Of a stretch of 64,000 nucleotides of DNA, positions 3,610-64,000 are shown in pieces. Numbering within the stretch: the stretch's first letter is position 1; every line of letters begins with the position of its first letter. The translations under genes and the position numbers were made by a program. This stretch comes from Candidatus Woesebacteria bacterium (GTDB lineage: Bacteria > Patescibacteriota > Microgenomatia > UBA12405). The stretch lies in the NCBI GenBank assembly GCA_035402805.1, contig DAONDY010000002.1:229111-293110 (forward strand), read 5' to 3'. Below the pieces are notes generated by a model. It saw nothing but the letters and a program-made list of their open reading frames with translations, had not been told where the DNA came from and searched no databases.

Positions 3610-5778
3610 TTAAACTATTTTTTTGCCCCATCTTTGTTGAGAAGTATTTATAAGTTTGGCTCGTTGTTGATTTTTACAGGAAAGTGGGGCTAAAGTAGTG
3701 GCATAAAAAGGTTCGGTAGTTTCTGAGTCTATAGAAAGTTTACAGACAATTTGATATTTCCCAATTTTAATTAAATCTTCAGGAGGGAAGGCAGGTCCAA
3801 ATTCTTTAGCTAAGATAAAAGCATCCTGATTACCAACTACAAAAGACATAATTGAACCGACGTTGCCTAAAATGGCGTCTTGGATAGTTTTGTCGAGCTG
3901 TGACATATATTGGTTGGCGACGATTAAATTTAATTTAAATTTACGAGCTTCAGAAAGAATTTTAATAAAAGCTTCAGTGGCAAAATTTTGGAACTCATCA
4001 ACGTAGAGATAAAAATCGGAACGATCTTCACTGGCTTGAAAAACACGATTCATAGCTGAGAGTTGGATTTGAGTAATTAACATGGCGCCTAATAGAGAAG
4101 AATTATCTTCACCAAGACGACCAGTGGATAAATCAGCAATTAAAATCTTCTTTTGATCCATTATTTCTTGGATATTTATTTTTGATTTAGCATGGGCGAC
4201 AGTATTTCTAATATTTGTTGAAGAAATAAACTGGCCAACTTTATTTAAGATAGGGGAAACAGCTTCGTTTTGGAACTTAGGATCCATGCGATCGAATTCA
4301 TTATGCCAAAAATTAATTAAGGTTTGATTGGTTAATTGAGAGACTGCTTTTTGGCGGAAATTTTTATTAGTTAAAATTTCAACGATATGGGTCATATCGG
4401 ATCCTGGAATATTGACTAGAGTTAAAACGGCATTTCTTAAGATATGTTCAAGACGAGGACCCCAAGAAATATTGCCATAAAGTTTTTTAAAAATTGAAAG
4501 AACACCAGAAGCAATCAATTCTTTTTGATTTTCATTTTTGGCCTCTAAAACATTGAGAGGATAGGCATATTCTGGATCAGCTGGATTAAAATAACAACAA
4601 TCGTTAATACGATTACTAGGAATGTAATCAAGGATGGTATTACATAAATCACCGTGAGGATCGATAACAGCAACGCCTCGACCTTTACGAATATCGTCAA
4701 TGGCCATATTGGCAATTAAAGTTGTTTTACCAGTACCAGATTTACCGATAATGTAGGTATGGCGGCGGCGATCTTCGCCTTGTTTAATACCAAAAATAGA
4801 GTCTTTATTTCTAAATTCAGTTTTAGCAAAAAAAGTAATTTCATTTTTTTGTTCAGGAGTGAGATTATCGGCAATTGGAAGATTTTCTGGCGGATCGGCA
4901 TAAAGTTTCTTACCCCAGGCAATATTGGGAAGCTTGGTATTTTGGTTGGGAAAATGCCAAATGGCGGCTAATTCTTCGGTATTAAATATTTGGCTTTTTA
5001 ACTTGGAATTAAATTTGCGAAGGCAAATAGATTCTCGAAGTTTCTTTTTAGTGAAGAAAACAGGGGTAAAATTTTTAATAAAATTACCACGAGGGTTGGT
5101 GTAGGCACCAAAAGAAGAGGAAACTGAAGAAATAAGTCCGGGATTATTGCTCAAAAGATTAATTTGGGTATAAAGACCGGGAAATTGAATTTTTTGTTCA
5201 AAAATGGCTTTGTCAGGATGGGCGGTACGAATATTTCTTTCTTTATCGACCAAAATGCCATTTTGAATGGTGCCAATAATTCCACTTTGCCAATTTTTGG
5301 GAGCACCGCTTAAAAGAATTTGGAAGAGAAAAAAATCTTTATTGTTATTAGACCTGGAAAGGGGAGCTAAAACGGAAGTTAAAGGATCGGTATCTTTAAA
5401 ATCTTTGGCGGTTTTAGTGGGGTAATCGTAAGATCGGCCTAAACCAAGCTGAGTAAAACTAATGGGTAATTGAGGATCGAGTTCTAAAAGGTAATCTTTG
5501 GTTTCTCGTAAAATAGCAGTGGAATACTGGGCGAGGATTTGGGAACGAAGAAACTCACTATTATTAGAAAGGGCGGCGATATAAAAATGAATTTGGCCAT
5601 CTTTCAAAACTATTTCTAACGAAACAATGGTTTTCTTTTTGCCAATTATTTTTTCAAAAAACGAAAGATTGGAAAATTGGGTGAAATTTGATAAAAGGGC
5701 AGACATCGATTCAAAAGTGTGTTCATTGGTTTGAGGTAGACGAACTTCAAAAATTGAAAGACTGGCAGTGTCAGACAT
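3610..5778 (-). CDS. FtsK/HerA/TraG-superfamily P-loop ATPase, resembling a type IV secretion coupling protein or DUF87
   Basis: Walker A GKSGTGKT is followed by DPHGDL. A Walker B-like YLYVDEFQNF and an ANQYMSQL tail are typical of TraD/VirD4/HerA-like ATPases. No N-terminal TM segments. Confidence 0.5.
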   Translation of the reverse strand: MSDTASLSIFEVRLPQTNEHTFESMSALLSNFTQFSNLSFFEKIIGKKKTIVSLEIVLKDGQIHFYIAALSNNSEFLRSQILAQYSTAILRETKDYLLELDPQLPISFTQLGLGRSYDYPTKTAKDFKDTDPLTSVLAPLSRSNNNKDFFLFQILLSGAPKNWQSGIIGTIQNGILVDKERNIRTAHPDKAIFEQKIQFPGLYTQINLLSNNPGLISSVSSSFGAYTNPRGNFIKNFTPVFFTKKKLRESICLRKFNSKLKSQIFNTEELAAIWHFPNQNTKLPNIAWGKKLYADPPENLPIADNLTPEQKNEITFFAKTEFRNKDSIFGIKQGEDRRRHTYIIGKSGTGKTTLIANMAIDDIRKGRGVAVIDPHGDLCNTILDYIPSNRINDCCYFNPADPEYAYPLNVLEAKNENQKELIASGVLSIFKKLYGNISWGPRLEHILRNAVLTLVNIPGSDMTHIVEILTNKNFRQKAVSQLTNQTLINFWHNEFDRMDPKFQNEAVSPILNKVGQFISSTNIRNTVAHAKSKINIQEIMDQKKILIADLSTGRLGEDNSSLLGAMLITQIQLSAMNRVFQASEDRSDFYLYVDEFQNFATEAFIKILSEARKFKLNLIVANQYMSQLDKTIQDAILGNVGSIMSFVVGNQDAFILAKEFGPAFPPEDLIKIGKYQIVCKLSIDSETTEPFYATTLAPLSCKNQQRAKLINTSQQRWGKKIV

Positions 5779-5844: not shown

Positions 5845-5934
5845 TTCCAAGTTAATATTTTTTAAATTTTTAACACTTATTTATCCTGGGCAAATTATTC
5901 CCTGTGTTAAAAATCAATAATAAGGAAAAACAAA

Positions 5935-6876: not shown

Positions 6877-7335
6877 ATGGATAACAATAAAATAATTGAA
6901 TTAGTTAAAAAAATTAGAGCTGAATTAGGCTTGGGAATTATGGAAATAAAATCTGCTTTAGAAGAGGCGGATGGTGATGAAAAAAAAGCCAAAGAAATTT
7001 TAAAAGAAAAAGGTTTTAAAAAAGCAGAAAGTAAAGCTGAAAGAGAAACTCATCAAGGAAGAGTGGCAACTTATACTCATGCTACTGGTAAGATCGGTGT
7101 CATGGTGGAGTTACTTTGTGAAACTGATTTCGTGGCTAAACATGAAGATTTTTTGGCCTTAACCAAAGACCTTTGTTTGCAAATTGCGGCTATGAATCCA
7201 GAAACTGTCGAAGATTTAATGAAGCAAGAATTTATTAAAGATCCAAGTAAAACTATTGAAGAAATGGTCAAAACCTTGATTTCTAAATTTGGCGAAAATA
7301 TGAAAATCAACCGTTTTGCTAGATTTGAGATTTAG
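6877..7335 (+). CDS. tsf: Elongation factor Ts (short form)
   Basis: UBA-like N-terminus (IMEIKSALEEADGDEKKAKEILKEKG). C-terminal RFARFEI resembles the FVRFEVG end. Lies downstream of rpsB. Confidence 0.85.
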   Translation: MDNNKIIELVKKIRAELGLGIMEIKSALEEADGDEKKAKEILKEKGFKKAESKAERETHQGRVATYTHATGKIGVMVELLCETDFVAKHEDFLALTKDLCLQIAAMNPETVEDLMKQEFIKDPSKTIEEMVKTLISKFGENMKINRFARFEI

Positions 7336-7344
7336 AAATATAAA

Positions 7345-7424
7345 TTTTCGTCACAAATTTTTTATGTCTGATGAATGTGCGGTGCACGTTCAAGGCCATA
7401 AAAAATTATGACTTCAAATTTAAT
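7345..7424. repeat. Copy 1 of a ~85-nt conserved structured repeat element. A second copy lies at 14646-14728.
   Basis: About 85% identity to 14646-14728. AT-rich outer arms (gtcacaaattttttatg / cataaaaaattatgac) enclose an inner stem GAATGTGC-ggt-GCACGTTC. Copy 2 carries a compensatory stem change (GTGG...CCAC). Confidence 0.6.
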
Positions 7425-7432
7425 TAGTTTAG

Positions 7433-7457
7433 CCCTCCGAGAAATCGGAGGGTTTTT
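7433..7457 (+). terminator. Rho-independent terminator after tsf
   Basis: ccctccga-gaaa-tcggaggg stem-loop followed by ttttt. Confidence 0.75.
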
Positions 7458-7473
7458 GGTATAATTTAAGCAT

Positions 7474-8025
7474 ATGATAAATTTCACCGACGTAAAAACG
7501 AGAATGGAAAAGATTAGTGGTTTATTTGTTAATGACATTGCTTCAATAAGAACAGGTCGAGCTACCCCAGGATTGATTGAAAATGTGGTAGTGACTGTTT
7601 ATGGTGGCCAAAAAATGAAATTAATCGAATTAGGATCGATCGGGGTGCCGGATGTTCGTAGTTTAACTTTTGAAGCTTGGGATCAAACCTTGACTAGAGA
7701 AATTGCTAATGGAATAGCGGCGGCTAATATTGGAATGACACCAGCAGTTGATGGAAATACTATTAGAATGAGTTTGCCAATGTTGACAGTGGAACAGAGA
7801 GAGGATTATATAAAACTTTTAGGGAGAAAATTAGAAGGAGCTAGAGTAATGATTCGTGATGCTAGAGGCGATTTTAGAAATGGTTTACAAAAAGCTAAAA
7901 ACGATAAAACTATTTCCGAAGATGAATTTAAGAAAGATGAAACTGAACTACAAAAAACAACCGACCTTTATATAAATAAATTAGAAGAAATTGCTAAGAA
8001 GAAGGAATTAGAAATAAGGGGCTAA
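7474..8025 (+). CDS. frr: Ribosome recycling factor
   Basis: MINFTDVKTRMEKISGLF...IRTGRATPGLIE aligns with RRF. TATAAT at 7460-7465 lies only 8 nt before the ATG. Confidence 0.9.
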   Translation: MINFTDVKTRMEKISGLFVNDIASIRTGRATPGLIENVVVTVYGGQKMKLIELGSIGVPDVRSLTFEAWDQTLTREIANGIAAANIGMTPAVDGNTIRMSLPMLTVEQREDYIKLLGRKLEGARVMIRDARGDFRNGLQKAKNDKTISEDEFKKDETELQKTTDLYINKLEEIAKKKELEIRG

Positions 8026-13862: not shown

Positions 13863-14283
13863 ATTAAAACAAGACAGTTTTGATGCTTTAAAGAACCGTG
13901 ATAACAAGCGGGTGGATGTGTTGCGATTTTTAATTTCATTAATTGATAAAAAAGAATTACAACTGCCACCCGGTGGTATGACAGAAGCTGAAGAAATTGG
14001 AGTTTTAAGAAAAGAATTAAAAAACAAAGAAGAGTCAAGAGAAATGTTTTTAAAGGCTGCTAGACAAGATTTAGTAGATCAACTTGATTATGAAATAACA
14101 ATAGTTAAGGAATATTTACCGGCAGAAGTTAGTGAAGAAAAAATTATTGAAATAATAGAACAAGTAATGGCGGAAAAAGGAAATAATTTTGGATTAATTA
14201 TGAAGGAAGTGATGATAAAAATGGGTGGAGCTGTAGATGGTGGAGTGATTTCAAAAATTGTAAAAGAAAAGATTAATGGATAA
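13852..14283 (+). CDS. yqeY: GatB/YqeY domain protein
   Basis: YqeY-like sequence (DALKNRDNKRVDVLRFLIS...EYLPAEVSEEKIIEII...GLIMKEVMIKMGG). rpsU-yqeY synteny. The start is placed at the internal Met, because the ORF-track start overlaps rpsU. Confidence 0.7.
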   Translation: MRNKLKQDSFDALKNRDNKRVDVLRFLISLIDKKELQLPPGGMTEAEEIGVLRKELKNKEESREMFLKAARQDLVDQLDYEITIVKEYLPAEVSEEKIIEIIEQVMAEKGNNFGLIMKEVMIKMGGAVDGGVISKIVKEKING

Positions 14284-14638
14284 TTTAATTTTGATAAATC
14301 ATAATAAGAATTGGGGTTTGAATGAAAGTTTGGTTGAAGAACTGGCAAAAAAAGTACTTAAAGAAAAGGGATTTAAACAGAATGTTGAACTGAGTATTTA
14401 TTTTGTAGGAAGAAAAAAGGCTAAGGATTTAAATGTAAATTATCGAAAGATGGGCTATATACCTCAAGTTTTGGGTTTTCCAATGTCAAAAGAAAAAGAT
14501 GCGGATGGAATAATCAGATTGGGTGATATTGTAATTTGTACTCAAAAATTAAAGTATGAAATAAAATTTCAAAAATCGAATTTAGATACTGTTTTATACA
14601 GTTGGTTGATTCATGGAGTTGAAAATTTATTAAAGTAG
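14276..14638 (+). CDS. YbeY-like endoribonuclease homolog. It is C-terminally truncated and lacks the His triad, so it may be degenerate.
   Basis: GDIVICTQ...SWLIHGVENLLK* aligns with YbeY GDLVIC...HMVVHGSLHLLGYDH. The second His is replaced by Asn and the third is absent. The stop abuts repeat copy 2. Confidence 0.55.
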   Translation: MDNLILINHNKNWGLNESLVEELAKKVLKEKGFKQNVELSIYFVGRKKAKDLNVNYRKMGYIPQVLGFPMSKEKDADGIIRLGDIVICTQKLKYEIKFQKSNLDTVLYSWLIHGVENLLK

Positions 14639-14645
14639 TTTTAAA

Positions 14646-14728
14646 TTTTTGTCACAGAATTTTTTATGTCTGGTGAATGTGGTCGCCCACGTTCAAGGCC
14701 ATAAAAAATTGTGACTTCAAATTTAAAT
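14646..14728. repeat. Copy 2 of the ~85-nt structured repeat element
   Basis: gtcacagaattttttatg...GAATGTGG-tcgc-CCACGTTC...cataaaaaattgtgac with conserved flanks. Lies between the truncated ybeY-like gene and dnaX. Confidence 0.6.
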
Positions 14729-14791
14729 TATTTTAATAATGATACAGTTACGAATATTGTAAATGGGACTGGATTTTGGTTTAATCGTTTG

Positions 14792-16345
14792 ATGTCAGTT
14801 TTTCACTTAAAATATAGACCAATTAAGTTTTCTGATCTTGATTTGAATGATGTGGCGAATAGTTTAAAAAAATATTTGAGTGCTAAAGATGTTCCGCAAT
14901 CCTTTTTATTTTCCGGTCCTAAGGGGGCTGGAAAAACTTCAGCGGCCAGAATTTTAGCCAGGGCAGTAAATTGTAGTAATCTTAAAGACGGTGAGCCTTG
15001 TGGAGAATGTGATAATTGTAAGGAAATAATAAAAGGCGGGGCTATGGATATTATTGAAATGGATGGGGCTTCAAATCGAGGAATTGAAGATGTCAGAAGT
15101 TTAAAAGATAAAGCTTATTTGTTGCCAAGTAAATTGGATAAAAAAGTTTTTATTATAGATGAAGTTCATATGTTAACTAAAGATGCGTTTAATGCACTTT
15201 TAAAGTTGATTGAGGAACCACCAAAGCATACAATTTTTGTTTTATGCACTACAGATGCAGAAAAAATTCCGGAAACGGTGTTGTCACGATTAGTAAGAGT
15301 TGATTTTAGAAAGGGTGGAAAAAATGAACTAATGAATTCACTTAAAAAAATTATTGATGGGGAAGGAATTGAAATTGCCAAGGAAGCTATTGAATTTATA
15401 GTCGAAAGAAGTGACGGCAGTTTTAGAAATTTACAAAGAAGTTTTAATGAACTTTATCTACAATTAGGAAAAAAATTAAAGACAGATGATGTTTTTAAAT
15501 TTTATTTAGATAAAAGTGGAAGTTATGACGAAGAAAGTTTTGACAAGGATTTAAATGATGGAAATACAAAATTGATTTTGGAAAAATTGGAAAAAATGGC
15601 GGAAGATGGAATTGATTTTTCTAGTTTTAGATTAAAATTAATGAACTATTTTCAAAAAAAGATTTTGTCATTTTATGGAGTCGGGGAAGATAAAAAAAAA
15701 TATTTAAATTTGGAAGAATCGGAGTTTTTAATAAATTTATTAGTCAAAGCATCTAAACAAGAAAAAGAAGTAGAAATAGATCAATTACCGTTGGAATTGG
15801 CAGTAATAGAATTTGCGGGACAAAAAGGATCTCAAGTGTCAGAAGTTAGAAGTCGGGATCAAGAAGACAAAAAGGAAGAATCTAAAAAAGAGGAAAAAAT
15901 AGTAGAAAAAAAGGTAGAAACTAAAGAAATTGAAGAAATAGTAACAATAGAATCGGATTGTTCGATAGGGGTGGAAACGGTTGAGGAAAAATGGGGAAAT
16001 TTATTGATGACAATCAAACCTTTTAACCACTCAGTTGAAGCATTTTTAAGAGCATCTAGACCAAAATCAATTAGAGGAAAGACTTTGCTTTTGGAAGTTT
16101 TTTATCCTTTTCATAAAGATAGGTTGGAAGAGGCAAAGAATAGAAAAATAGTTGAAGAATGTATGTCCAAGGTTTTTGGAATCGATTTATGTTTTGAATG
16201 TATTTTGGGAAAAAGCAGAAAGGGGCCATTAATTATTAAAAATGATACCCCTATTAAAAATATTAGCGAACAGTTAGTAGATGGTAAAGAAGGCGAAAAG
16301 GCTGGCGGAGATATTTATGATGTAGCAAAAGAGATATTTGGATAA
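14792..16345 (+). CDS. dnaX: DNA polymerase III gamma/tau subunit
   Basis: LKYRPIKFSDL start, Walker A GPKGAGKTS, zinc module CGECDNC, GASNRGIEDVR, and SRLV sensor. The start is placed at the internal Met (14792), because the ORF-track start lies inside the repeat element. Confidence 0.85.
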   Translation: MSVFHLKYRPIKFSDLDLNDVANSLKKYLSAKDVPQSFLFSGPKGAGKTSAARILARAVNCSNLKDGEPCGECDNCKEIIKGGAMDIIEMDGASNRGIEDVRSLKDKAYLLPSKLDKKVFIIDEVHMLTKDAFNALLKLIEEPPKHTIFVLCTTDAEKIPETVLSRLVRVDFRKGGKNELMNSLKKIIDGEGIEIAKEAIEFIVERSDGSFRNLQRSFNELYLQLGKKLKTDDVFKFYLDKSGSYDEESFDKDLNDGNTKLILEKLEKMAEDGIDFSSFRLKLMNYFQKKILSFYGVGEDKKKYLNLEESEFLINLLVKASKQEKEVEIDQLPLELAVIEFAGQKGSQVSEVRSRDQEDKKEESKKEEKIVEKKVETKEIEEIVTIESDCSIGVETVEEKWGNLLMTIKPFNHSVEAFLRASRPKSIRGKTLLLEVFYPFHKDRLEEAKNRKIVEECMSKVFGIDLCFECILGKSRKGPLIIKNDTPIKNISEQLVDGKEGEKAGGDIYDVAKEIFG

Positions 16346-56089: not shown

Positions 56090-57829
56090 ATGAATGATCC
56101 TGCCTCAAAAATATACAAGAACTTAAAGGATGCCCTTTTAGAAAAAGGTTTGATTAATCAGGAAAAATACGAGGAGATTAATTTAAGACAACTAAAAACC
56201 GGGGAAACAGAGGAAGAAGTTATCAAGGCGTTGAGATTGGTTTCAGATATTGATTTTGTTAAATGCAAAGCTTTGTTTTTGAGGGTACCTTACGTTGATT
56301 TAGAAACGATTGGTTTTTCGCCGGAAGCTTTGACTTTAGTACCGGAAAGTGTGGCTCAAAAATATAAAATAGTTCCTTACGGCCTGGATACAAAAAATAA
56401 AGTTTTGTCTATCGCTATGGTTAATCCATTAGATTTGGAAACCATTGAATTTTTGGAAAAAAAGACAGATTTGAAAATAAAGGTAGCAATTTCTTTAGAG
56501 AAGCAAATTAACTCTTATATTAAAGAAAAATACATTCGAGAAAAAAATATCACTTCTGAAGTGACTAGGGCTTTAAATGAAAGAAAGGATGACGAAAAGG
56601 TAACAAAGTTAGCTGATGAAAAGGTGGCGGTTGAAGCTCCAGTGGCAAAAATAGTATCGACTATTTTGGAATATGCTGTTAAATCTAGAGCTTCAGATGT
56701 CCATATTGAACCTCAAGAAGATAATGTCAGAATTAGATATCGAATAGATGGTATTTTGCAGGAAAAATATTTATTGCCGAGAAATGTTCATGACGCAGTC
56801 GTGTCGAGAATTAAAATCTTATCTAACTTAAAGATCGATGAAAAGAGAATCCCTCAAGATGGACGATTTTTCTTTTCAGCTGATGGCAATGATGTAGATT
56901 TACGTATATCAACTTTACCGACAACTTACGGTGAAAAAGTCGTTATGCGTTTACTTAAAAAAGCTCAGAAAGTACCAACATTACAGGAATTGGGTTTAAG
57001 AGGTATGGCTCTAAAAAATTTGATGAATTCGATTCAAAGACCTCATGGAATCATTATTGTTTGTGGACCAACTGGTTCAGGAAAAACAACGACTTTATAT
57101 TCGGTATTGGATATTGTGGCGACATCAAAAGTAAATGTAGTAACAGTGGAAGATCCAGTTGAATATCAAATGAAAGGAGTTAATCAGGTTCAGGTTAACG
57201 TTCAGGCCGGTTTAACTTTTGCTTCGGCGTTACGCTCTTTTTTACGTCAAGATCCTAACGTAATCATGGTTGGAGAAATTCGTGATCAAGAGACTGCAGA
57301 TTTGGCTGTTAATGCTGCCTTAACTGGACATTTAGTTTTTTCAACTTTACATACAAATGATGCGTCTGGCGTTCCGCCAAGATTATTGGATATGGGAGTG
57401 GAACCGTTTTTGCTGACATCATCTTTGAATTGTGTGGTTGGACAGAGAGTTTTACGAAAAGTTTGTAAAAACTGTGTACAAGAAATGGAAATTCCATCGG
57501 AAAGTATTAGAGAACTTAAAGAAACACTGGGTCCTATTTACAATATGATCGAGGATAAGTTTGCCAAAGATGGTAAAAAATTAACGTTACCCAAAATTGT
57601 TGGATGTGAGAAGTGTAATAATACTGGATATTTAGGGCGAGTTGCTATATATGAGGTAATGCCAATTACAGAAAAATTAAGTAAATTAATTGTGGAAAAG
57701 GCAGCAGCTTCGGATATTCAGAAACAGGCAATGGAAGAAGGAATGTTGACGATGAAACAGGATGGTTATGTAAAAGTTTTAGAAGGAGTAACTAGTATGG
57801 ATGAAGTTATTAGAGTTGCTCAATATTAG
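56090..57829 (+). CDS. pilB: Type IV pilus assembly ATPase PilB (GspE family)
   Basis: GPTGSGKTTTLYS Walker A, tetracysteine CKNC...CEKC. Confidence 0.9.
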   Translation: MNDPASKIYKNLKDALLEKGLINQEKYEEINLRQLKTGETEEEVIKALRLVSDIDFVKCKALFLRVPYVDLETIGFSPEALTLVPESVAQKYKIVPYGLDTKNKVLSIAMVNPLDLETIEFLEKKTDLKIKVAISLEKQINSYIKEKYIREKNITSEVTRALNERKDDEKVTKLADEKVAVEAPVAKIVSTILEYAVKSRASDVHIEPQEDNVRIRYRIDGILQEKYLLPRNVHDAVVSRIKILSNLKIDEKRIPQDGRFFFSADGNDVDLRISTLPTTYGEKVVMRLLKKAQKVPTLQELGLRGMALKNLMNSIQRPHGIIIVCGPTGSGKTTTLYSVLDIVATSKVNVVTVEDPVEYQMKGVNQVQVNVQAGLTFASALRSFLRQDPNVIMVGEIRDQETADLAVNAALTGHLVFSTLHTNDASGVPPRLLDMGVEPFLLTSSLNCVVGQRVLRKVCKNCVQEMEIPSESIRELKETLGPIYNMIEDKFAKDGKKLTLPKIVGCEKCNNTGYLGRVAIYEVMPITEKLSKLIVEKAAASDIQKQAMEEGMLTMKQDGYVKVLEGVTSMDEVIRVAQY

Positions 57830-57849
57830 TTAATATAAATTAAAAAAAT

Positions 57850-58920
57850 ATGAATATAAAAATGGAGGAAATTTTAAAATTTGCGGTGGCAAATAAGGCT
57901 TCTGATATTCATCTTATTTCTGATGTTCCCCCAAAAGTTAGGGTTAATGGCGATCTCTTAAATATATCTGGTTTTGAAAATACCGACAAAAAAGGAATTA
58001 GAGAAATGGTTTTATCTCTTTTGGATGAAAAACAACTGGAGGCATTTAATAAGGAAAAAGAATTAGACTTTTCTTTTGATGCAGTGGATGGAACTCGTAT
58101 TAGAGCTAACGTTTATTTTCAAAAAGGTGAACCAGCTTGTGCCTTAAGATTAATAGCTTCGAAAATCCCCTCTTTTGAAGAACTAGGAATTCCAGATATT
58201 TTGAAAACTTTTACTAAATATAAACAAGGGTTTGTATTAGTGACTGGTCCAACAGGTCACGGAAAATCAACCACAGTAGCAGCTATGTTGGAAGAAATTA
58301 ATGCAACTAGAGGTGGACACATTGTGACAATAGAAGATCCAATAGAATATTTGATTAAGCCGGAAAAGGCAATTATTTCTCAAAGGGAGATGGGCGGAGA
58401 TACTAACAGTTTTGATTTGTCTTTGAGATCGTGTCTTAGACAGGATCCTAATGTGGTATTTTTGGGAGAAATGAGAGATTTGGAATCAACATCTTCGGCT
58501 TTGACAATTGCGGAAACTGGTCATTTAGTTTTTTCAGTTTTACACACCAATTCAGCTGCCCAGACTATAGATAGAATTATTGATGTTTTTCCAGCTGACG
58601 CTAAAGATCAAATTAGAGTTCAGTTATCAACGGTAATTACGGCTATTATTTCACAAAGATTAGTGCCAGCGATTGATGGAGGCAGAATCCCAGTTTTTGA
58701 AATTTTAATAGCGACTCCAGCTGTTAGAAATGTGATTAGGGAAGGAAAATCTTTTATGATTGATAATATTATCCAAACTAGCTCGGATATTGGAATGATA
58801 AGTTTTGATGCTTATATGGCCAAACTAGTTTTAGATGGTAAAGTCTCTGAGGAAGTGGCAATGAGTTATTCGACAAATCCAGTTGAATTACAGGGTAAAT
58901 TAAGAAGACAAAAAATATGA
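57850..58920 (+). CDS. pilT: Twitching motility ATPase PilT
   Basis: GPTGHGKSTT, and a short PilT-like length with no N-terminal extension. Confidence 0.85.
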   Translation: MNIKMEEILKFAVANKASDIHLISDVPPKVRVNGDLLNISGFENTDKKGIREMVLSLLDEKQLEAFNKEKELDFSFDAVDGTRIRANVYFQKGEPACALRLIASKIPSFEELGIPDILKTFTKYKQGFVLVTGPTGHGKSTTVAAMLEEINATRGGHIVTIEDPIEYLIKPEKAIISQREMGGDTNSFDLSLRSCLRQDPNVVFLGEMRDLESTSSALTIAETGHLVFSVLHTNSAAQTIDRIIDVFPADAKDQIRVQLSTVITAIISQRLVPAIDGGRIPVFEILIATPAVRNVIREGKSFMIDNIIQTSSDIGMISFDAYMAKLVLDGKVSEEVAMSYSTNPVELQGKLRRQKI

Positions 58921-60128
58921 CGAAATTTTTTTATAAAGCTAAAGATTGGAATGGAAAAGCCATAAAGGGGGTGTTGGATTCTCAAGATAAAAAAAGTGCC
59001 TTAGAGTCAATAAAAAGTGGAGGCTTGATACCATTAGCAATTATGGCTGAAAGTACTTCAGTTTTTAATGATATTTATAAAAGATTGTTTTCAAAAATTA
59101 GTCTAAAACAAATTTCTAATTTCACTAGACAGTTGTCAACAATGATGAATTCCGGTTTGGCTTTAACCGATGCTTTAGCACTATTAAAAAATCAAACGGA
59201 TAAAAAAAGTTTAATGTTTGAAATTTTAGATTACACTTTAACGACGGTTCAGGGCGGGCATTCTTTGGCGGATGGTTTGGGAAAATATAAAAAGAATTTT
59301 GGTGAGGCCTATATTGCTTCAATTGAGGCTGGTGAGGAAGGAGGAGTTTTAGAGGAAGTTTTGACAAAATTAGCTGATAACTTGGAAAAACAAAATGATT
59401 TTGCTAGTAAAGTAAAAGGAGCAATGATTTATCCAATAATAGTCATTGTCGGCATGATTGCAGTGGTAATTATTATGATGATTTTTGTCATTCCTAAATT
59501 AATGGGTCTATATTCTGATTTTGGAGCGAAAATGCCCGCATCAACTCAATTATTGATGGATATATCAGGATTCATGACTAAATTTTGGTTTTTGATTCCG
59601 ATTATAGTTGTTGGCGTTTTTGCTTTTTTTAAGATTGGCGGACAAAATGCTGATTTTAGGTTGAAAAGAGATGTTTTAAAATTAAAAATTCCTATCATAG
59701 GAGTTCTGAACCAAAAAACTATTTTATCAACGACAATAAGAACTATGTCGATGCTTTTGTCGGCGGGTATTCCTTTAGTAGAGGCACTTAAAATTGTTTC
59801 TAGTGTGGCGGCTAATGAACTTTTTAGAGGAGCCTATTTAAAAATTTCGGAAAGAGTTCAAAAAGGTTTTTCGATTGCTAATTCTTTTGAAGAAACTGGG
59901 GTTTTTCCAGTTATTGTTAATCAAATGGTGGCAACTGGAGAAGCGACGGGAAAATTGGATACAGTTTTATTAAAAGTTTCTGATTATTTTTCGGCTGAAG
60001 CTGAACAATCGGTAAAATCATTAACTTCAGCTATTGAACCAATAATCATGATTCTTTTGGGATTAGGGGTGGCATTTTTGGTCGTGGCGGTTTTAATGCC
60101 AATTTATAATTTGACTTCCAGTATGTAG
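58917..60128 (+). CDS. pilC: Type IV pilus inner-membrane platform protein PilC (GspF)
   Basis: Two GspF repeats, a 3-TM topology, and pilB/pilT synteny. Confidence 0.85.
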   Translation: MTKFFYKAKDWNGKAIKGVLDSQDKKSALESIKSGGLIPLAIMAESTSVFNDIYKRLFSKISLKQISNFTRQLSTMMNSGLALTDALALLKNQTDKKSLMFEILDYTLTTVQGGHSLADGLGKYKKNFGEAYIASIEAGEEGGVLEEVLTKLADNLEKQNDFASKVKGAMIYPIIVIVGMIAVVIIMMIFVIPKLMGLYSDFGAKMPASTQLLMDISGFMTKFWFLIPIIVVGVFAFFKIGGQNADFRLKRDVLKLKIPIIGVLNQKTILSTTIRTMSMLLSAGIPLVEALKIVSSVAANELFRGAYLKISERVQKGFSIANSFEETGVFPVIVNQMVATGEATGKLDTVLLKVSDYFSAEAEQSVKSLTSAIEPIIMILLGLGVAFLVVAVLMPIYNLTSSM

Positions 60129-60206
60129 TTTCAGTAGCTGTCACTTGACAGCTTAATTTTAGTGGTGAATAATGAATTAATAGCATTAAATATTTATTAG
60201 GAAAAA

Positions 60207-60887
60207 ATGAAAAACAAGATAAAAGAAATGAAGGGTTTTACCCTAGTGGAACTCTTAATCGTTATCGCTTTAATCGCGATTTTATCAGTGGCAGTGTTGG
60301 CAACAATTAATCCTATTGAACAAGCAAATAAAGCAAAAGATTCAACAACACAGAATGACGCAGCTGAAATGATGAATGCTTATGAGAGGTATTACGCTAA
60401 TGCTCAGAGATATCCATGGATGGAATATACCGATGGATCAAGTATTACTGTTGATAGTGCGGTTAACTATTCTTCAAAACAAGTTGGTTTTGGTATTTGT
60501 TATGGTAATAAAGGAACTGTTGATTCAGATGAAGTTGGAAGTTGTAACACTACCGGTACTGAGATGGGTTTGTTAGTGGAAACTGATGAGCTCAAATCTT
60601 CTTTCGCTAATAAGACTGAATTCCAAAGTGCTAATGACGAAGATCAATTGTGGGCAATTAAATTAGCTGGTTCTGGTGGTGGAATCTACGTTTGTTATAT
60701 TCCAAAGGCAAAAGCCAATCGACAATTGACTGATAAGTTGTATTGTATTGATTCAACTAATTCAACTTTAATTAAAGTTAGTGCTAGCGCTACTGATAGT
60801 TGTGTGGCTTTACCAACTACCGATGCGGGTTGGTCAACACCAACTTTAACTGGAGAAGTTGGTATGTTTAGATGTGTACCAGAGTAA
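60207..60887 (+). CDS. Type IV pilin (likely major pilin)
   Basis: Class III signal MKNKIKEMKG|FTLVELLIVIALIA. Strong terminator immediately downstream. Confidence 0.8.
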   Translation: MKNKIKEMKGFTLVELLIVIALIAILSVAVLATINPIEQANKAKDSTTQNDAAEMMNAYERYYANAQRYPWMEYTDGSSITVDSAVNYSSKQVGFGICYGNKGTVDSDEVGSCNTTGTEMGLLVETDELKSSFANKTEFQSANDEDQLWAIKLAGSGGGIYVCYIPKAKANRQLTDKLYCIDSTNSTLIKVSASATDSCVALPTTDAGWSTPTLTGEVGMFRCVPE

Positions 60888-60908
60888 ACTCTAAATTAGA
60901 GATAATTA

Positions 60909-60935
60909 AAACCCCGCTTAAAGGCGGGGTTTTTT
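60909..60935 (+). terminator. Rho-independent terminator after the pilin gene
   Basis: aaccccgc-ttaaag-gcggggtt followed by tttttt. A second weaker hairpin and T-run lie at about 60934-60972. Confidence 0.8.
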
Positions 60936-60985
60936 CGGCCAGAGGCCGATCAGCCTGTGACTGAGGTTTTTTGTTAAAATGATTT

Positions 60986-61780
60986 ATGGAAATTTTATTG
61001 GCAATAATTACTTTTGTTTTAGGGTTATGTTTCGGGAGTTTTGTGAATATGTTGATTTATCGAACAGCGATTAAATATAAATTGGATAAAAAAAAATTTA
61101 AGACAAATAAGAACCGAAGTTTTTGTGATTACTGTGGAAGACAATTGAAATGGTATGAAAATATACCCGTGTTTTCTTGGTTGTTTTTAAAAGGGAAAAC
61201 TAAATGTTGCCATAAAAAACTATCAGTCTCCTACCCTATTGTGGAACTTTTAATGGGAATTATTTTTGTAATTTTTAATTTTCAATTTTCAATTTTCAAT
61301 CAAATTAAAATTTTCAATTTTCAATTTTTATTAGGATTAGTGATTGTTGTTTTGTTGGTTTTTAGTGCGGCATTTGATTGGAAATATATGATTTTGCCTG
61401 ATTTTTCGACAATTATATTAATAATAGTGGCTTTTTTGGGAGTTGTCTTTGATGAAACTAACATAATCCCCTATTTACTGTCATCATTAGTGGCTGCTGG
61501 TTTTTTGTTAATTTTAAATTTAATTACCAAAGGTAAAGGAATGGGAATGGGAGATGTAAAATTAGCCATTTTTATGGGATTATTTTTGGGATATCCAAAT
61601 ATTATTGTAGCTTTTTATGTGGCTTTTATAATTGGAGCAATATACGGATTAGGGTTGATAATTTTAAAAAAGGCCAATAAAAAAAGTCAGCTACCATTTG
61701 GACCATTTTTAATAATAGGAACATTAACGTCTTGGTGGTTTGGACAAAAAATTGTAGAATTAATAAAAATTATATTATGA
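60986..61780 (+). CDS. pilD: Prepilin peptidase PilD (A24 family) with an N-terminal zinc-binding CxxC pair
   Basis: CDYCGRQL...KCCHKKL and a polytopic TM region containing an aspartyl protease motif. Contains a 7-nt tandem repeat (61279-61324). Confidence 0.8.
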   Translation: MEILLAIITFVLGLCFGSFVNMLIYRTAIKYKLDKKKFKTNKNRSFCDYCGRQLKWYENIPVFSWLFLKGKTKCCHKKLSVSYPIVELLMGIIFVIFNFQFSIFNQIKIFNFQFLLGLVIVVLLVFSAAFDWKYMILPDFSTIILIIVAFLGVVFDETNIIPYLLSSLVAAGFLLILNLITKGKGMGMGDVKLAIFMGLFLGYPNIIVAFYVAFIIGAIYGLGLIILKKANKKSQLPFGPFLIIGTLTSWWFGQKIVELIKIIL

Positions 61781-62436
61781 GAAAAAATGGTTTTACTTTA
61801 GTGGAAATATTGATTGTGATGGTAATTTTGGTAATGATAGCAATGATGATGATTGGAACTTTTAACGCAATAGGAGTGACCAATAAAGGTAGAGACGCTA
61901 GAAGAAAAAAGGATTTAAACAGGATTAAAATTGCTTTTGAAGAATATTTTAATGATAAGGGTGAATTTCCAACCGGTACTTTATTGGTTGACTTAAAAGA
62001 TAAAAAAAATTGTGGAAGTTCAAGTGTTTTTGCACCATATTTAAATCCTTGGCCTTGTGACCCAAATGGTAACCCTTATTATATACATGTGGAAAATAAC
62101 CAGTTTAGAATAATTACTAACTTGGAAAACAAAAAAGATAAAGATATCCCTGAGGGATGGTATATAAAAAATGATTTTAATTTTCCGGTTTTAAGTTTAG
62201 CTACTAATGATGCAAATTACGGTGTTTCTAGCGCCAATATTTTATGGTATGACGGTTTAGTACGTGATTATTCTATGTGTAATGTAACTGAATGTTTCAA
62301 TGGTGATGAAGGCTGTAAAGATGTTACTCACAGTGGTGGTTGTTTTGGTAATGATTGTTTTTATAGTAATAGCAGTCTAGGAGGCTGTATTCCTGAATGC
62401 TCGGTTCCCTGTTGTGGTGATAAATGTAATCAATAA
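61777..62436 (+). CDS. Type IV pilin-like protein (Cys-rich C-terminus)
   Basis: MRKNG|FTLVEILIVMVIL prepilin N-terminus. The start is taken at the internal Met. Confidence 0.65.
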   Translation: MRKNGFTLVEILIVMVILVMIAMMMIGTFNAIGVTNKGRDARRKKDLNRIKIAFEEYFNDKGEFPTGTLLVDLKDKKNCGSSSVFAPYLNPWPCDPNGNPYYIHVENNQFRIITNLENKKDKDIPEGWYIKNDFNFPVLSLATNDANYGVSSANILWYDGLVRDYSMCNVTECFNGDEGCKDVTHSGGCFGNDCFYSNSSLGGCIPECSVPCCGDKCNQ

Positions 62437-62453
62437 AAATAGTAAAATGACTT

Positions 62454-62894
62454 ATGAAAAAAAATTTTAATGTTTTTGAATTATTAATAATAATTATTGT
62501 TATATCTGTACTATCATTTATAACTTATCGTCAATTTGTTTTGGCCCAAGAAAAATCCAGAGACTTACAGAGAAGATCTGATTTACATGAATTTTCGAAA
62601 ATAATCAAATTATATTATGGTGATTATAAAAAATTACCAGATGAGGAATTAATCAATAATCTTTGGGGAAAAAGTTTTATAGACAGTGGTTATACTTATG
62701 CTGATTCGGTTCCAAAAGAGAAAAATGGGGAAAAGGAATATTGTTATCAAATTGGAGAGGATGGTCTTTCCTTTAAAATATCGGCTGAGTTTGAAAATAA
62801 AAATGATCCGGAGTGCAAAACAGAGGGGCAGTTGTGCGGCGGAGTTAAATATTGCTATACTGATATTGTCTATGTTAATAAAACATCAAAGTAA
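62454..62894 (+). CDS. Pilin-like protein with an atypical prepilin N-terminus
   Basis: MKKNFNVFELLIIIIV hydrophobic N-terminal helix with Glu5. Confidence 0.5.
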   Translation: MKKNFNVFELLIIIIVISVLSFITYRQFVLAQEKSRDLQRRSDLHEFSKIIKLYYGDYKKLPDEELINNLWGKSFIDSGYTYADSVPKEKNGEKEYCYQIGEDGLSFKISAEFENKNDPECKTEGQLCGGVKYCYTDIVYVNKTSK

Positions 62895-63300
62895 AGGTAT
62901 TTTTGGTTTTAGTTTAATAGAGCTTTTAGTAGTTATTTCAATTATTGGAGTATTAACAGCGGTATTAACAGCTAATTTTATGGGGATGAGAGAAAGAGCT
63001 AGAGATGCTCAAAAAATTCAAGATCTAAATTCGATGAAGAGTGCCTTGAGGATATACTATAATGATCATCAAAGTTATCCAGCCACACAGGCTGATTTTG
63101 TTAAAGATGTTGGGACGAGTAATTATATGCCAAATTTAATGGGTATTGGCTTTAGTTATAATTATTTGGTTACTTCGGGTGGAGATGGTTTCGTTTTAAC
63201 AGCTCCATTGGAATCTGGAGCTGGAACTGATGATACTGACTCTCAAACTAAATGTGGGCTTGGAGCTTCTGATAAAATTTTTGCAGTTTGTGCAAATTAA
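62872..63300 (+). CDS. Type IV pilin-like protein
   Basis: KGIFG|FSLIELLVVISIIGVL. The start is taken at the internal Met (MLIKHQSKG). Confidence 0.6.
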   Translation: MLIKHQSKGIFGFSLIELLVVISIIGVLTAVLTANFMGMRERARDAQKIQDLNSMKSALRIYYNDHQSYPATQADFVKDVGTSNYMPNLMGIGFSYNYLVTSGGDGFVLTAPLESGAGTDDTDSQTKCGLGASDKIFAVCAN

Positions 63301-63302
63301 TA

Positions 63303-63779
63303 AAAATGAAAAAAATAAAAAATAATTTAGGGTTTACATTAGTTGAATTATTGGTAGTGATCTCAATCATGGGAATTTTAACGGTTATTTCGGTGGCTTC
63401 TTTTACTAGTGCCCAAATTAAAGCTCGTGACTCTCAAAGAAAATCTGATTTAGATCAGACTGCAAAAGCTTTAATGTTGTATTACGGTGATACTGGGACA
63501 TTTCCGGCTGAAGGTGATTTTAAATTTGGATATGAAGAAGATAATGGTTTTAAAATTGGAGAAACTATTTATATGAGAAAAACACCTAAAGATCCGAAAG
63601 ATTCTAGTGATTATGTCTATGTTTATAAAACTGATGGTAAGTCCTTTAATTTATTTGCTAATTTAGAAAACAAAAAAGACTCCCAATGTAATGGTTCTTA
63701 TGCTATTACTGGTGTGGGTAGTACCTTTTGTTATGGTGTTTCTAGTCCAAATTCATTAGTTAAAAGTTGGTTAGAATAA
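63303..63779 (+). CDS. Type IV pilin-like protein
   Basis: MKKIKNNLG|FTLVELLVVISIMGIL. Confidence 0.7.
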   Translation, partial: KMKKIKNNLGFTLVELLVVISIMGILTVISVASFTSAQIKARDSQRKSDLDQTAKALMLYYGDTGTFPAEGDFKFGYEEDNGFKIGETIYMRKTPKDPKDSSDYVYVYKTDGKSFNLFANLENKKDSQCNGSYAITGVGSTFCYGVSSPNSLVKSWLE

Positions 63780-63781
63780 AT

Positions 63782-64000
63782 TATGAAAAAAAATAAAAAC
63801 GAAAAAGGATTTACACTTTTTGAACTTTTGGTTAGTATTTCAATTATTGGAATTTTGACAGCCTTGGCTTCGGTGGCTTTTTCAGGAGCACAAAAGAAAG
63901 CTAGAGATGCTAGAAGAGTTCAAGATATTAAAGCAATTCAGACTGCTGCGGAACAATACTATTCACAGAATAGCTATGTTTATCCTACTAACAGCACAAC
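63782..64000 (+). CDS. Type IV pilin-like protein, 3'-partial at the window end
   Basis: MKKNKNEKG|FTLFELLVSISIIGIL. Runs off the window. Confidence 0.65.

Follow-up and report, generated by a model that had tools for sequence, protein, structure and literature searches.

Two imperfect palindromes in the window, as we call the whole 64-kb stretch of DNA that was analyzed, are probably copies of a strand-specific, non-autonomous mobile palindromic element of Candidatus Shapirobacteria that is co-transcribed as an mRNA hairpin; we put the probability of this reading at about 0.6. The element is a previously undescribed family of a familiar kind, the small palindromic repeat, and not a new kind of RNA gene. 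In the literature on CPR, Shapirobacteria, structured RNA and MITEs, we found no description of it.

The preliminary description of this DNA had reported a structured element in two copies. Both are present at the places it gave, and 73 of 83 aligned positions match (88%) over its coordinates; the identity is 84% once flanks are included, and the longest exact word in common is 23 nt. A 28-mer from the right arm, with at most three mismatches allowed, matched the window twice, at copies 1 and 2, where shuffled sequences are expected to give 0 matches. No third copy was found in the 64-kb window by repeat finding or by a covariance model run without filters. The inner stems were given correctly (copy 1, GAAUGUGC-GGU-GCACGUUC; copy 2, GAAUGUGG-UCGC-CCACGUUC). 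The extent was too short, as an extra outer 6-bp helix (AAAUUU/AAAUUU) brings the hairpins to 7342-7421 and 14643-14724, and copy 1, which had been assigned to the tsf 3′ region, actually lies past the tsf stop codon (7333-7335) and not in tsf. The features of the window are as follows (L numbers denote loci from other assemblies).

6877..7335, + strand: tsf (EF-Ts, 152 aa), from a Pfam search; stop codon 6 nt before P1 of copy 1
7342..7421, + strand: whole hairpin of copy 1, from sequence, fold and a covariance-model match at 7336-7435 (101 bits)
7342-7347/7416-7421, + strand: P1 of copy 1
7350-7354/7408-7412, + strand: P2 of copy 1
7356-7366/7397-7407, + strand: P3 of copy 1
7367-7371/7393-7396, + strand: internal loop of copy 1
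7372-7380/7384-7392, + strand: P4 of copy 1, with loop GGU at 7381-7383
7356..7407, + strand: apical core of copy 1 (P3, internal loop and P4), nearly invariant, of the triloop and C-G apex variant, from alignments and strain comparison
7431..7454, + strand: canonical intrinsic terminator of tsf, AGCCCTCCGAGAAATCGGAGGGTT followed by TTT, from a terminator scan and alignment with L037
7474-8025, + strand: frr (RRF), the next gene after copy 1, from a Pfam search
14276..14638, + strand: ybeY, from a Pfam search; stop codon 4 nt before P1 of copy 2
14635..14739, + strand: inserted segment at ybeY|dnaX, absent from the empty sites of L033, L037 and L039, from alignments of filled and empty sites
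14643..14724, + strand: whole hairpin of copy 2, from sequence, fold and a covariance-model match at 14637-14738 (114 bits)
14643-14648/14719-14724, + strand: P1 of copy 2
14651-14655/14711-14715, + strand: P2 of copy 2
14658-14668/14700-14710, + strand: P3 of copy 2
14669-14673/14696-14699, + strand: internal loop of copy 2
14674-14682/14687-14695, + strand: P4 of copy 2, with loop UCGC at 14683-14686

On the + strand, copy 1 folds at -26.5 kcal/mol (z -5.7) and copy 2 at -32.6 kcal/mol (z -5.9), and for either copy 0 of 200 shuffles folded as well; the - strand of both copies folds nearly as well as the + strand. The EF-Ts encoded upstream of copy 1 is only 152 aa long, about half the usual bacterial length, and has the same length in all relatives fetched.

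Further copies do exist in related genomes. An exact core 20-mer was found at 10 loci in a species-representative genome collection, and a gapped pattern gave 11 metagenome loci with the core. With a covariance model trained on 15 copies, additional and more divergent members came to light in these loci, with three copies in L007 (8 kb), three in L014 (9.8 kb) and two in each of L002 and L012; L003 adjoins L007, and the joined 11 kb contain four copies. The copies within any one locus are always on one strand. The family collected in this way comprises 25 distinct copies at about 17 independent sites, at a density of about 1-4 copies per 10-60 kb in carrier genomes and 2 copies in about 72 kb in the window species. 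Carriers were found only among Candidatus Shapirobacteria-like genomes. Four of the MAGs with a 20-mer match are named Candidatus Shapirobacteria, and four others are labelled 'uncultured Gammaproteobacteria' (CAYUUU, CAYSME, CAYPBP and CAYRMT, with loci L002, L005, L008, L009 and L010). The loci under the latter label have gene order and 75-78% DNA identity in common with the Shapirobacteria MAG loci, and the label is therefore probably wrong. Contigs break at or beside the element in L002, L005, L010 and L016, as expected for a repeat.

The earlier statement that the element matches no known RNA family was borne out. Rfam 15 at the gathering threshold, applied to the window and nine related loci, returned only the window tRNAs and one cobalamin riboswitch, and at a permissive E-value the best matches to the two copies had E-values of 0.1-0.25 and scores far under gathering. 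The riboswitch lies at L012:3963-4117 on a Shapirobacteria-like metagenome contig and scored 33.3 bits against a gathering threshold of 31.5. BLAST against phage, plasmid and E. coli collections gave no match to the element. Pattern matches in viral_contigs were due to chance, with no covariance-model match there.

The consensus is a four-helix hairpin, in an element of about 85-105 nt. From the ends inwards, P1 (AAAUUY/RAAUUU) is followed by UC/UUC, P2 (GUCAC/GUGAC), P3 (AAUUUUUUAUG/CAUAAAAAAUU), an internal loop (UCUGG/AGGC), P4 (UGAAUGUGS/SCACGUUCA) and a loop of 3 or 4 nt; the termini are imperfect inverted repeats of 13-14 nt (AAATTYTCGTCAC ... GTGACTTCRAATTT). When an unfitted MAFFT alignment was scored, 95% of cells were paired and double changes occurred in 9 pairs, a level that 0 of 500 shuffles reached, and slid-partner controls on the same alignment brought pairing down to 29-53%. 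When the 25 distinct copies were aligned to the model, 96% of cells were paired and 15 pairs had double changes. The fold of the proposed conserved hairpin family is strongly supported by this covariation. Covariation is free in the outer helices, P1 and P2. The inner ~52 nt, made up of P3, the internal loop and P4, hardly vary, and the two U.G wobbles that they contain are, like the internal loop, unchanged in 22-24 of the 25 copies. Paired indels occur in P3 of L014 and L020. An A in the core of copy 1, A39 (TCTGATGA), is a strain-level variant among the window, L031 and L032; position 7371 is A in the window and G in L032.

The preliminary description had taken the apical C-G pair of copy 1 and the G-C pair of copy 2 as evidence of selection on structure. 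The difference itself is real, but it is coupled to a change in loop length (triloop vs tetraloop). Across the family, C-G forms the apex in 11 copies, G-C in 9 and G-U in 1, and the pair follows loop length, as GUGC-GNN-GCAC vs GUGG-UCGC-CCAC; the two forms differ by indels around a common GTCGC and not by two point changes. To infer structural selection from this single flip was too strong, since the dimorphism runs through the whole family and goes with loop length. Evidence on which strand folds is mixed. The two invariant U.G wobbles favor the + strand, whereas at variable positions the + strand has A.C/C.A mismatches in 19 cells vs about 5 with G.U, the A.C mismatches being frequent in P2.

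One strain of the window species bears on whether the hairpin forms in DNA. At L031:9862-9962 (equivalent to window 7336-7435), copy 1 has the 3′ internal loop AAGGCC changed to ATCAGAC, the exact complement of the 5′ arm GTCTGAT, in a loop that is otherwise invariant. The change looks like a quasipalindrome template-switch correction. Such a correction would mean that the DNA itself acts as a hairpin and that palindrome-driven mutation can make complementary changes without selection, which weakens the argument that compensation means selection on RNA structure.

Alignment of filled and empty sites places both window copies among recent insertions. Copy 1 is also present in two other assemblies of the window species (L032 and L040). 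Six relatives, with an RRF 83-92% identical, provided seven loci for comparison (L033-L039; L037 and L038 carry the same RRF, from two samples). In these, gene order is kept, no covariance-model match was found in about 125 kb, and both tsf|frr and ybeY|dnaX are empty. At ybeY|dnaX, the relatives read ...GTTGAAA|TGATATAG..., and the window carries at that point an insertion of about 104 nt (boundaries +/-2) with a clean alignment. The insert supplies the present TAG stop codon of ybeY (14636-14638), and the ancestral TGA is now downstream at 14740-14742. At tsf|frr, terminator and promoter are the same in L037, the closest relative, but a 33-nt spacer stands in place of the element; thus, the element was inserted between the tsf stop codon and a pre-existing terminator.

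The insertion also touches the annotation of dnaX. The longest dnaX ORF (14711-16345) begins at a GTG inside copy 2, as does the public call in L031 (544 aa). Since dnaX begins ~80 nt later in the element-free relatives (506-524 aa), the public gene model is probably overlong and the GTG at 14711 a mis-called start. Alignment with relatives places the real start near 14789-14795, preceded by a conserved promoter-like TTGTAA-17-TTTAAT that is common to the relatives. The element could explain such mis-called start codons as well as the contig breaks.

Given that both window copies are clean insertions missing from close relatives, the earlier verdict that the element is not a MITE was premature. 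As in TIR-type MITEs, the family is short, non-coding and multi-copy (25 distinct copies) with terminal inverted repeats, and it shows presence/absence polymorphism with clean empty sites at ybeY|dnaX, tsf|frr and the comE operon. No direct repeat stands out clearly when filled and empty sites are compared; any TA or TTAA duplication would be hidden by the AT-rich, palindromic ends (TTAAATTT...AAATTTAA). Some findings count against mobility. No transposase gene adjoins any copy or lies in the window (ORFs of at least 150 aa from 17.7 kb onward), and no HUH or RAYT gene was found among the scanned window ORFs, the fetched loci or the called genes of L031 (20.5 kb, overlapping the window start). 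The only recombinase in the window is one Xer-like tyrosine recombinase, 20 kb away from the element. In addition, the center of the element is more conserved than its termini, the reverse of most MITEs.

The comE operon, comEA-comEC(N)-comEC(MBL), illustrates how occupancy varies between species. L011 and L016 carry the element between comEA and comEC-N, L001 and L009 carry it between comEC-N and the MBL gene, and L002 has both spacers filled. In L011 (1216-1330) and L016 (~1128-1245), the element is in frame in the 5′ end of comEC-N, giving a predicted protein that begins MRSNYEN[LNSRHEFFMSGECAAHVQGHKKLGLRISS]FLVWILIF vs MKFNYK|FLVWIGIF in the empty L009. The consensus TGA of this frame is mutated to GGA or CGA in L011/L016, and in one of these loci the stem carries a compensating change. 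As no alternative start codon occurs between the element and the first transmembrane helix in either locus, part of the element is probably translated there. In L001, the element provides the C-terminal tail and stop codon of comEC-N.

Other palindromic sequences were seen in L001. At ~5885-5925 (- strand), an insert of a different, G+C-rich kind (KPSLSREGGRRPGG in frame) occupies the 5′ position of comEC-N that the element uses in L011 and L016, and at 4830-4910 (- strand) more G+C-rich hairpins (-40 kcal/mol, z -4.1) lie between the element and the MBL-domain gene. These may be a second family of small palindromic inserts. A 33-bit covariance-model match at L006:2255-2363 (- strand), the same as L013:5464-5572, has the same outer scaffold (P1, UC/UUC loops, P2, U7...A7) around an unrelated 46-nt G+C-rich center that folds poorly (z -1.6), a hint that the outer scaffold may carry alternative cores.

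The element is in sense orientation at 11 of 11 independent sites between co-directional genes. Its strand is the G-rich strand in all but one locus (L017, near zero), which includes 5 of the 6 convergent or divergent sites, L017 being the exception; such sites carry no information on transcription. None of the sampled copies lies in a lagging-strand operon; in this sample, replication-strand and transcription explanations are therefore inseparable, and the orientation fits the replication strand as well as it fits transcription. One copy is found in the divergent spacer dnaA <> rpmH-rnpA (L003:2232-4349). GC skew in L003 is positive on the rpmH strand across dnaA, so that dnaA appears to be encoded on the C-rich strand there.

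For the mobile palindromic element, we propose that it moves through, or is recognized as, a single-stranded hairpin. A putative enzyme would read the invariant core with its two fixed T.G/U.G wobbles and fixed internal loop, and the outer stems would need only to pair. Movement of this kind, inferred here, would explain the strand specificity, as single-stranded DNA transposition into one template strand at the replication fork. After insertion, the element would be co-transcribed with its host gene to give a stable RNA hairpin in a 3′UTR or between cistrons; this hairpin may modestly affect mRNA stability or processing and would not be needed by any particular gene. The copies land at gene ends, just past stop codons and occasionally in frame inside a gene end, typically starting 5-17 nt after the stop codon (median distance about 7-17 nt) and ahead of the promoter of the next gene. 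The neighbors are functionally unrelated (tsf, frr, ybeY, dnaX, comEA/EC, rpsA, radA, rho, nrdR, ftsH, glyA, murB, ruvC, dnaA/rpmH and others).

Strict sense orientation is also predicted by a function at the RNA level. The element could be a host-beneficial cis-acting module, a 3′UTR or intercistronic hairpin with a core that a specific protein or RNase binds or cleaves, spread by copying over many transcription units with mobility secondary, by analogy with the RNase III sites of phage T7 and the REP hairpins that protect mRNA 3′ ends. We regard this as possible but rather unlikely. It would account for the 11 informative sites all being in sense, for the short median distance past the upstream stop codon ahead of the next promoter and for the invariance of the wobbles and internal loop, and the covariation of P1 and P2 supports a folded state. 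The copies in L001, L002 and L009 look orthologous, with identical cores (100% conserved) where the flanking DNA and genes are 75-78% identical. Such identity suggests purifying selection on each copy, that is, a host function of the hairpin, or conversion between copies, or selection for mobilization competence with rapid turnover. However, the same genes are without the element in close relatives, where no other structure takes its place at the empty ybeY|dnaX site, and the tsf 3′ end is already set by a normal terminator. The conserved loop is lost in one strain (L031), and A.C mismatches are common in P2 on the + strand. For some Shapirobacteria (L033-L039), sampling of about 20 kb around frr gave no copy, and one further species was absent from the exact 20-mer matches of the genome scan.

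The functionally unrelated neighbors also make a discrete small-RNA gene or a gene-specific cis-regulator, both entertained in the preliminary description, unlikely. If the copies were trans-acting small RNA genes (about 90 nt) with promoters of their own, the conserved core and the several paralogous copies per genome would fit, and terminator-like hairpins do follow the element in copy 1, L001 and L009, with weak promoter-like hexamers upstream of copy 2. We nevertheless hold this to be very unlikely, for most copies start 5-17 nt past a stop codon, which leaves no room for a promoter outside the upstream gene, and most have no terminator; copy 1 has no promoter-like site upstream, two of the copies sit in frame within comEC, and the element is missing from close relatives. 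A riboswitch or gene-specific leader was rejected because the downstream genes (frr, dnaX, comEC, radA, rho, nrdR, rpsA, rpmH/rnpA, ruvC, RNHCP, DUF4012 and RimK-like) are unrelated and close relatives have no element at the same sites.

The imperfect palindrome has two similar half-sites (AATTTTTTATG...GAAYGTGG), often just upstream of promoters, and about 7 of the 17 sites adjoin genes for DNA uptake, replication or repair (comEA, comEC, radA, ruvC, dnaX-recR, dnaA, nrdR neighbors). This is what a double-stranded DNA operator or organizing site for a protein might look like, for instance the box of a competence or DNA-repair regulon. The enrichment is marginal and the sample biased, however, and many neighbors, such as tsf, frr, glyA, ftsH and rpsA, are unrelated. 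The compensatory changes in P1/P2 and the paired indels in P3 (L014 and L020) indicate intrastrand pairing, which a duplex site does not need; moreover, the 52-nt invariant stretch is far larger than an operator, and the spacing between the element and the next -10 box ranges from 9 to over 26 nt. An operator is very unlikely.

Several other identities were considered and rejected. The element is not a typical terminator, as had been noted: the terminator scan found no terminator-like site on either copy, picking only the separate hairpin at 7431-7454, and the element has no U tract 3′, with a U run 5′ and an A run 3′ of the core. A 12-codon ORF (ATG TCT GGT ... CCA TAA) loses its frame in every triloop variant, these being shorter by 1 nt, and the same applies to the - strand, so that a small protein is not encoded. 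A hammerhead-like 'CUGAUGA' box occurs only in copy 1 of the window strain, most other copies having CUGGUGA and two CUAGUGA. By eye, no GA/AG pairs are in the right place for a kink-turn, and the CATAA/TTATG arms have inverted polarity relative to a dif/Xer site. Integron attC was dismissed, as the ends have no R boxes (RYYYAAC ... GTTRRRY) and the neighbors are housekeeping genes, not cassettes. A GTGCGGT resembling the Haemophilus USS is not conserved across copies.

Among the options first offered for the element, a REP-like repeat was the closest. By behavior, the family is most like ERIC and the Rickettsia palindromic elements (RPE), being an imperfect palindrome of ~100 nt in transcribed intergenic DNA or in frame, with species-specific occupancy. 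The enterobacterial ERIC, or IRU, reportedly are ~127-bp imperfect palindromes. Like them, the element has a central inverted repeat better conserved than the ends, varies in occupancy between related species and would be co-transcribed as an mRNA hairpin; to our knowledge, ERIC also has neither coding capacity nor a transposase. In contrast, the element has no E. coli match, belongs to another phylum and seemingly has a low copy number, and it occurs strictly on one strand in our sample, whereas ERIC is found in both orientations. RPE are said to be palindromic repeats of ~100-150 nt that can sit in frame in genes. The likeness to RPE is one of behavior: both are palindromic repeats in small, reduced genomes and are found in frame in coding genes (here comEC-N of L011 and L016), although most copies here are intergenic. 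We know of no strand bias or invariant core in RPE.

The REP/REPIN-RAYT and IS200/IS605 systems resemble the element in their non-autonomous, intergenic hairpins with conserved mismatches and compensated stems, in a strand-specific orientation of the kind explained by single-strand-DNA transposition at forks and in the lack of an obvious target-site duplication. REP units number tens to hundreds, measure 20-40 nt and bear a conserved GTAG-type tetranucleotide at the 5′ end. The element differs in being a single ~85-nt hairpin with 2 copies in about 72 kb and a conserved center, where REPINs conserve the ends, and no RAYT or TnpA gene was found in the 64 kb or the fetched loci. TIR-type MITEs such as Correia/NEMIS and RUP are likewise small, non-coding and multi-copy, show insertion polymorphism and fold into a hairpin as RNA. 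In a MITE, conservation is normally highest at the termini, and a target-site duplication (e.g. TA) can be seen. Unlike in MITEs, the termini of the element covary, the center is fixed and the orientation is non-random. As a functional analogy only, the intercistronic RNase III processing hairpins of phage T7 are also ~60-90 nt, in sense, with an internal loop and a sequence common between sites. The element differs in being chromosomal and mobile between sites, and the analogy does not imply cleavage.

What is unusual in the element is its strict strand bias and center-conserved architecture; it is also recently active, in a genome-reduced, uncultivated phylum. The genomes of CPR/Patescibacteria, tiny and streamlined, are generally considered repeat-poor. 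A more far-reaching possibility, which we consider doubtful, is that the element is the single-stranded-DNA hairpin substrate of a new strand-specific CPR mobilization system that reads the 52-nt core and requires the ends only to pair, or else a domesticated RNA module with a sequence-specific partner. The former would invert the usual transposon logic of conserved ends and a free center; the latter would be a signal for processing or decay that many mRNAs carry, in a genome without many standard RNases. If strand bias and the invariant center do reflect a specific enzyme or RNA-binding partner, they would point to an uncharacterized mobilization or mRNA-processing system in an uncultivated phylum. 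As a recently active element, the family would be a marker for strain- and species-level dynamics in Shapirobacteria metagenomes and a natural experiment on the tolerance of insertions at gene ends.

Two further observations concern the genes of the window and its relatives. A TATAAT/TTTAAT box lies 5-10 nt before the ATG of many genes (frr, dnaX, radA, rpmH and RNHCP) with no obvious Shine-Dalgarno sequence; this short spacing was seen at window 7460-7476 and 14760-14795 and also in L004, L010, L014, L003 and L007, and suggests leaderless or very short-leader mRNAs in this lineage. The end of the window (56090-64000) carries a type IV pilus cluster with two T2SSE ATPases, a T2SSF protein, a prepilin peptidase and at least four pilin-like genes, whose repeated N-terminal methylation-motif sequences make up the repeat families D1 and D2 of the window.
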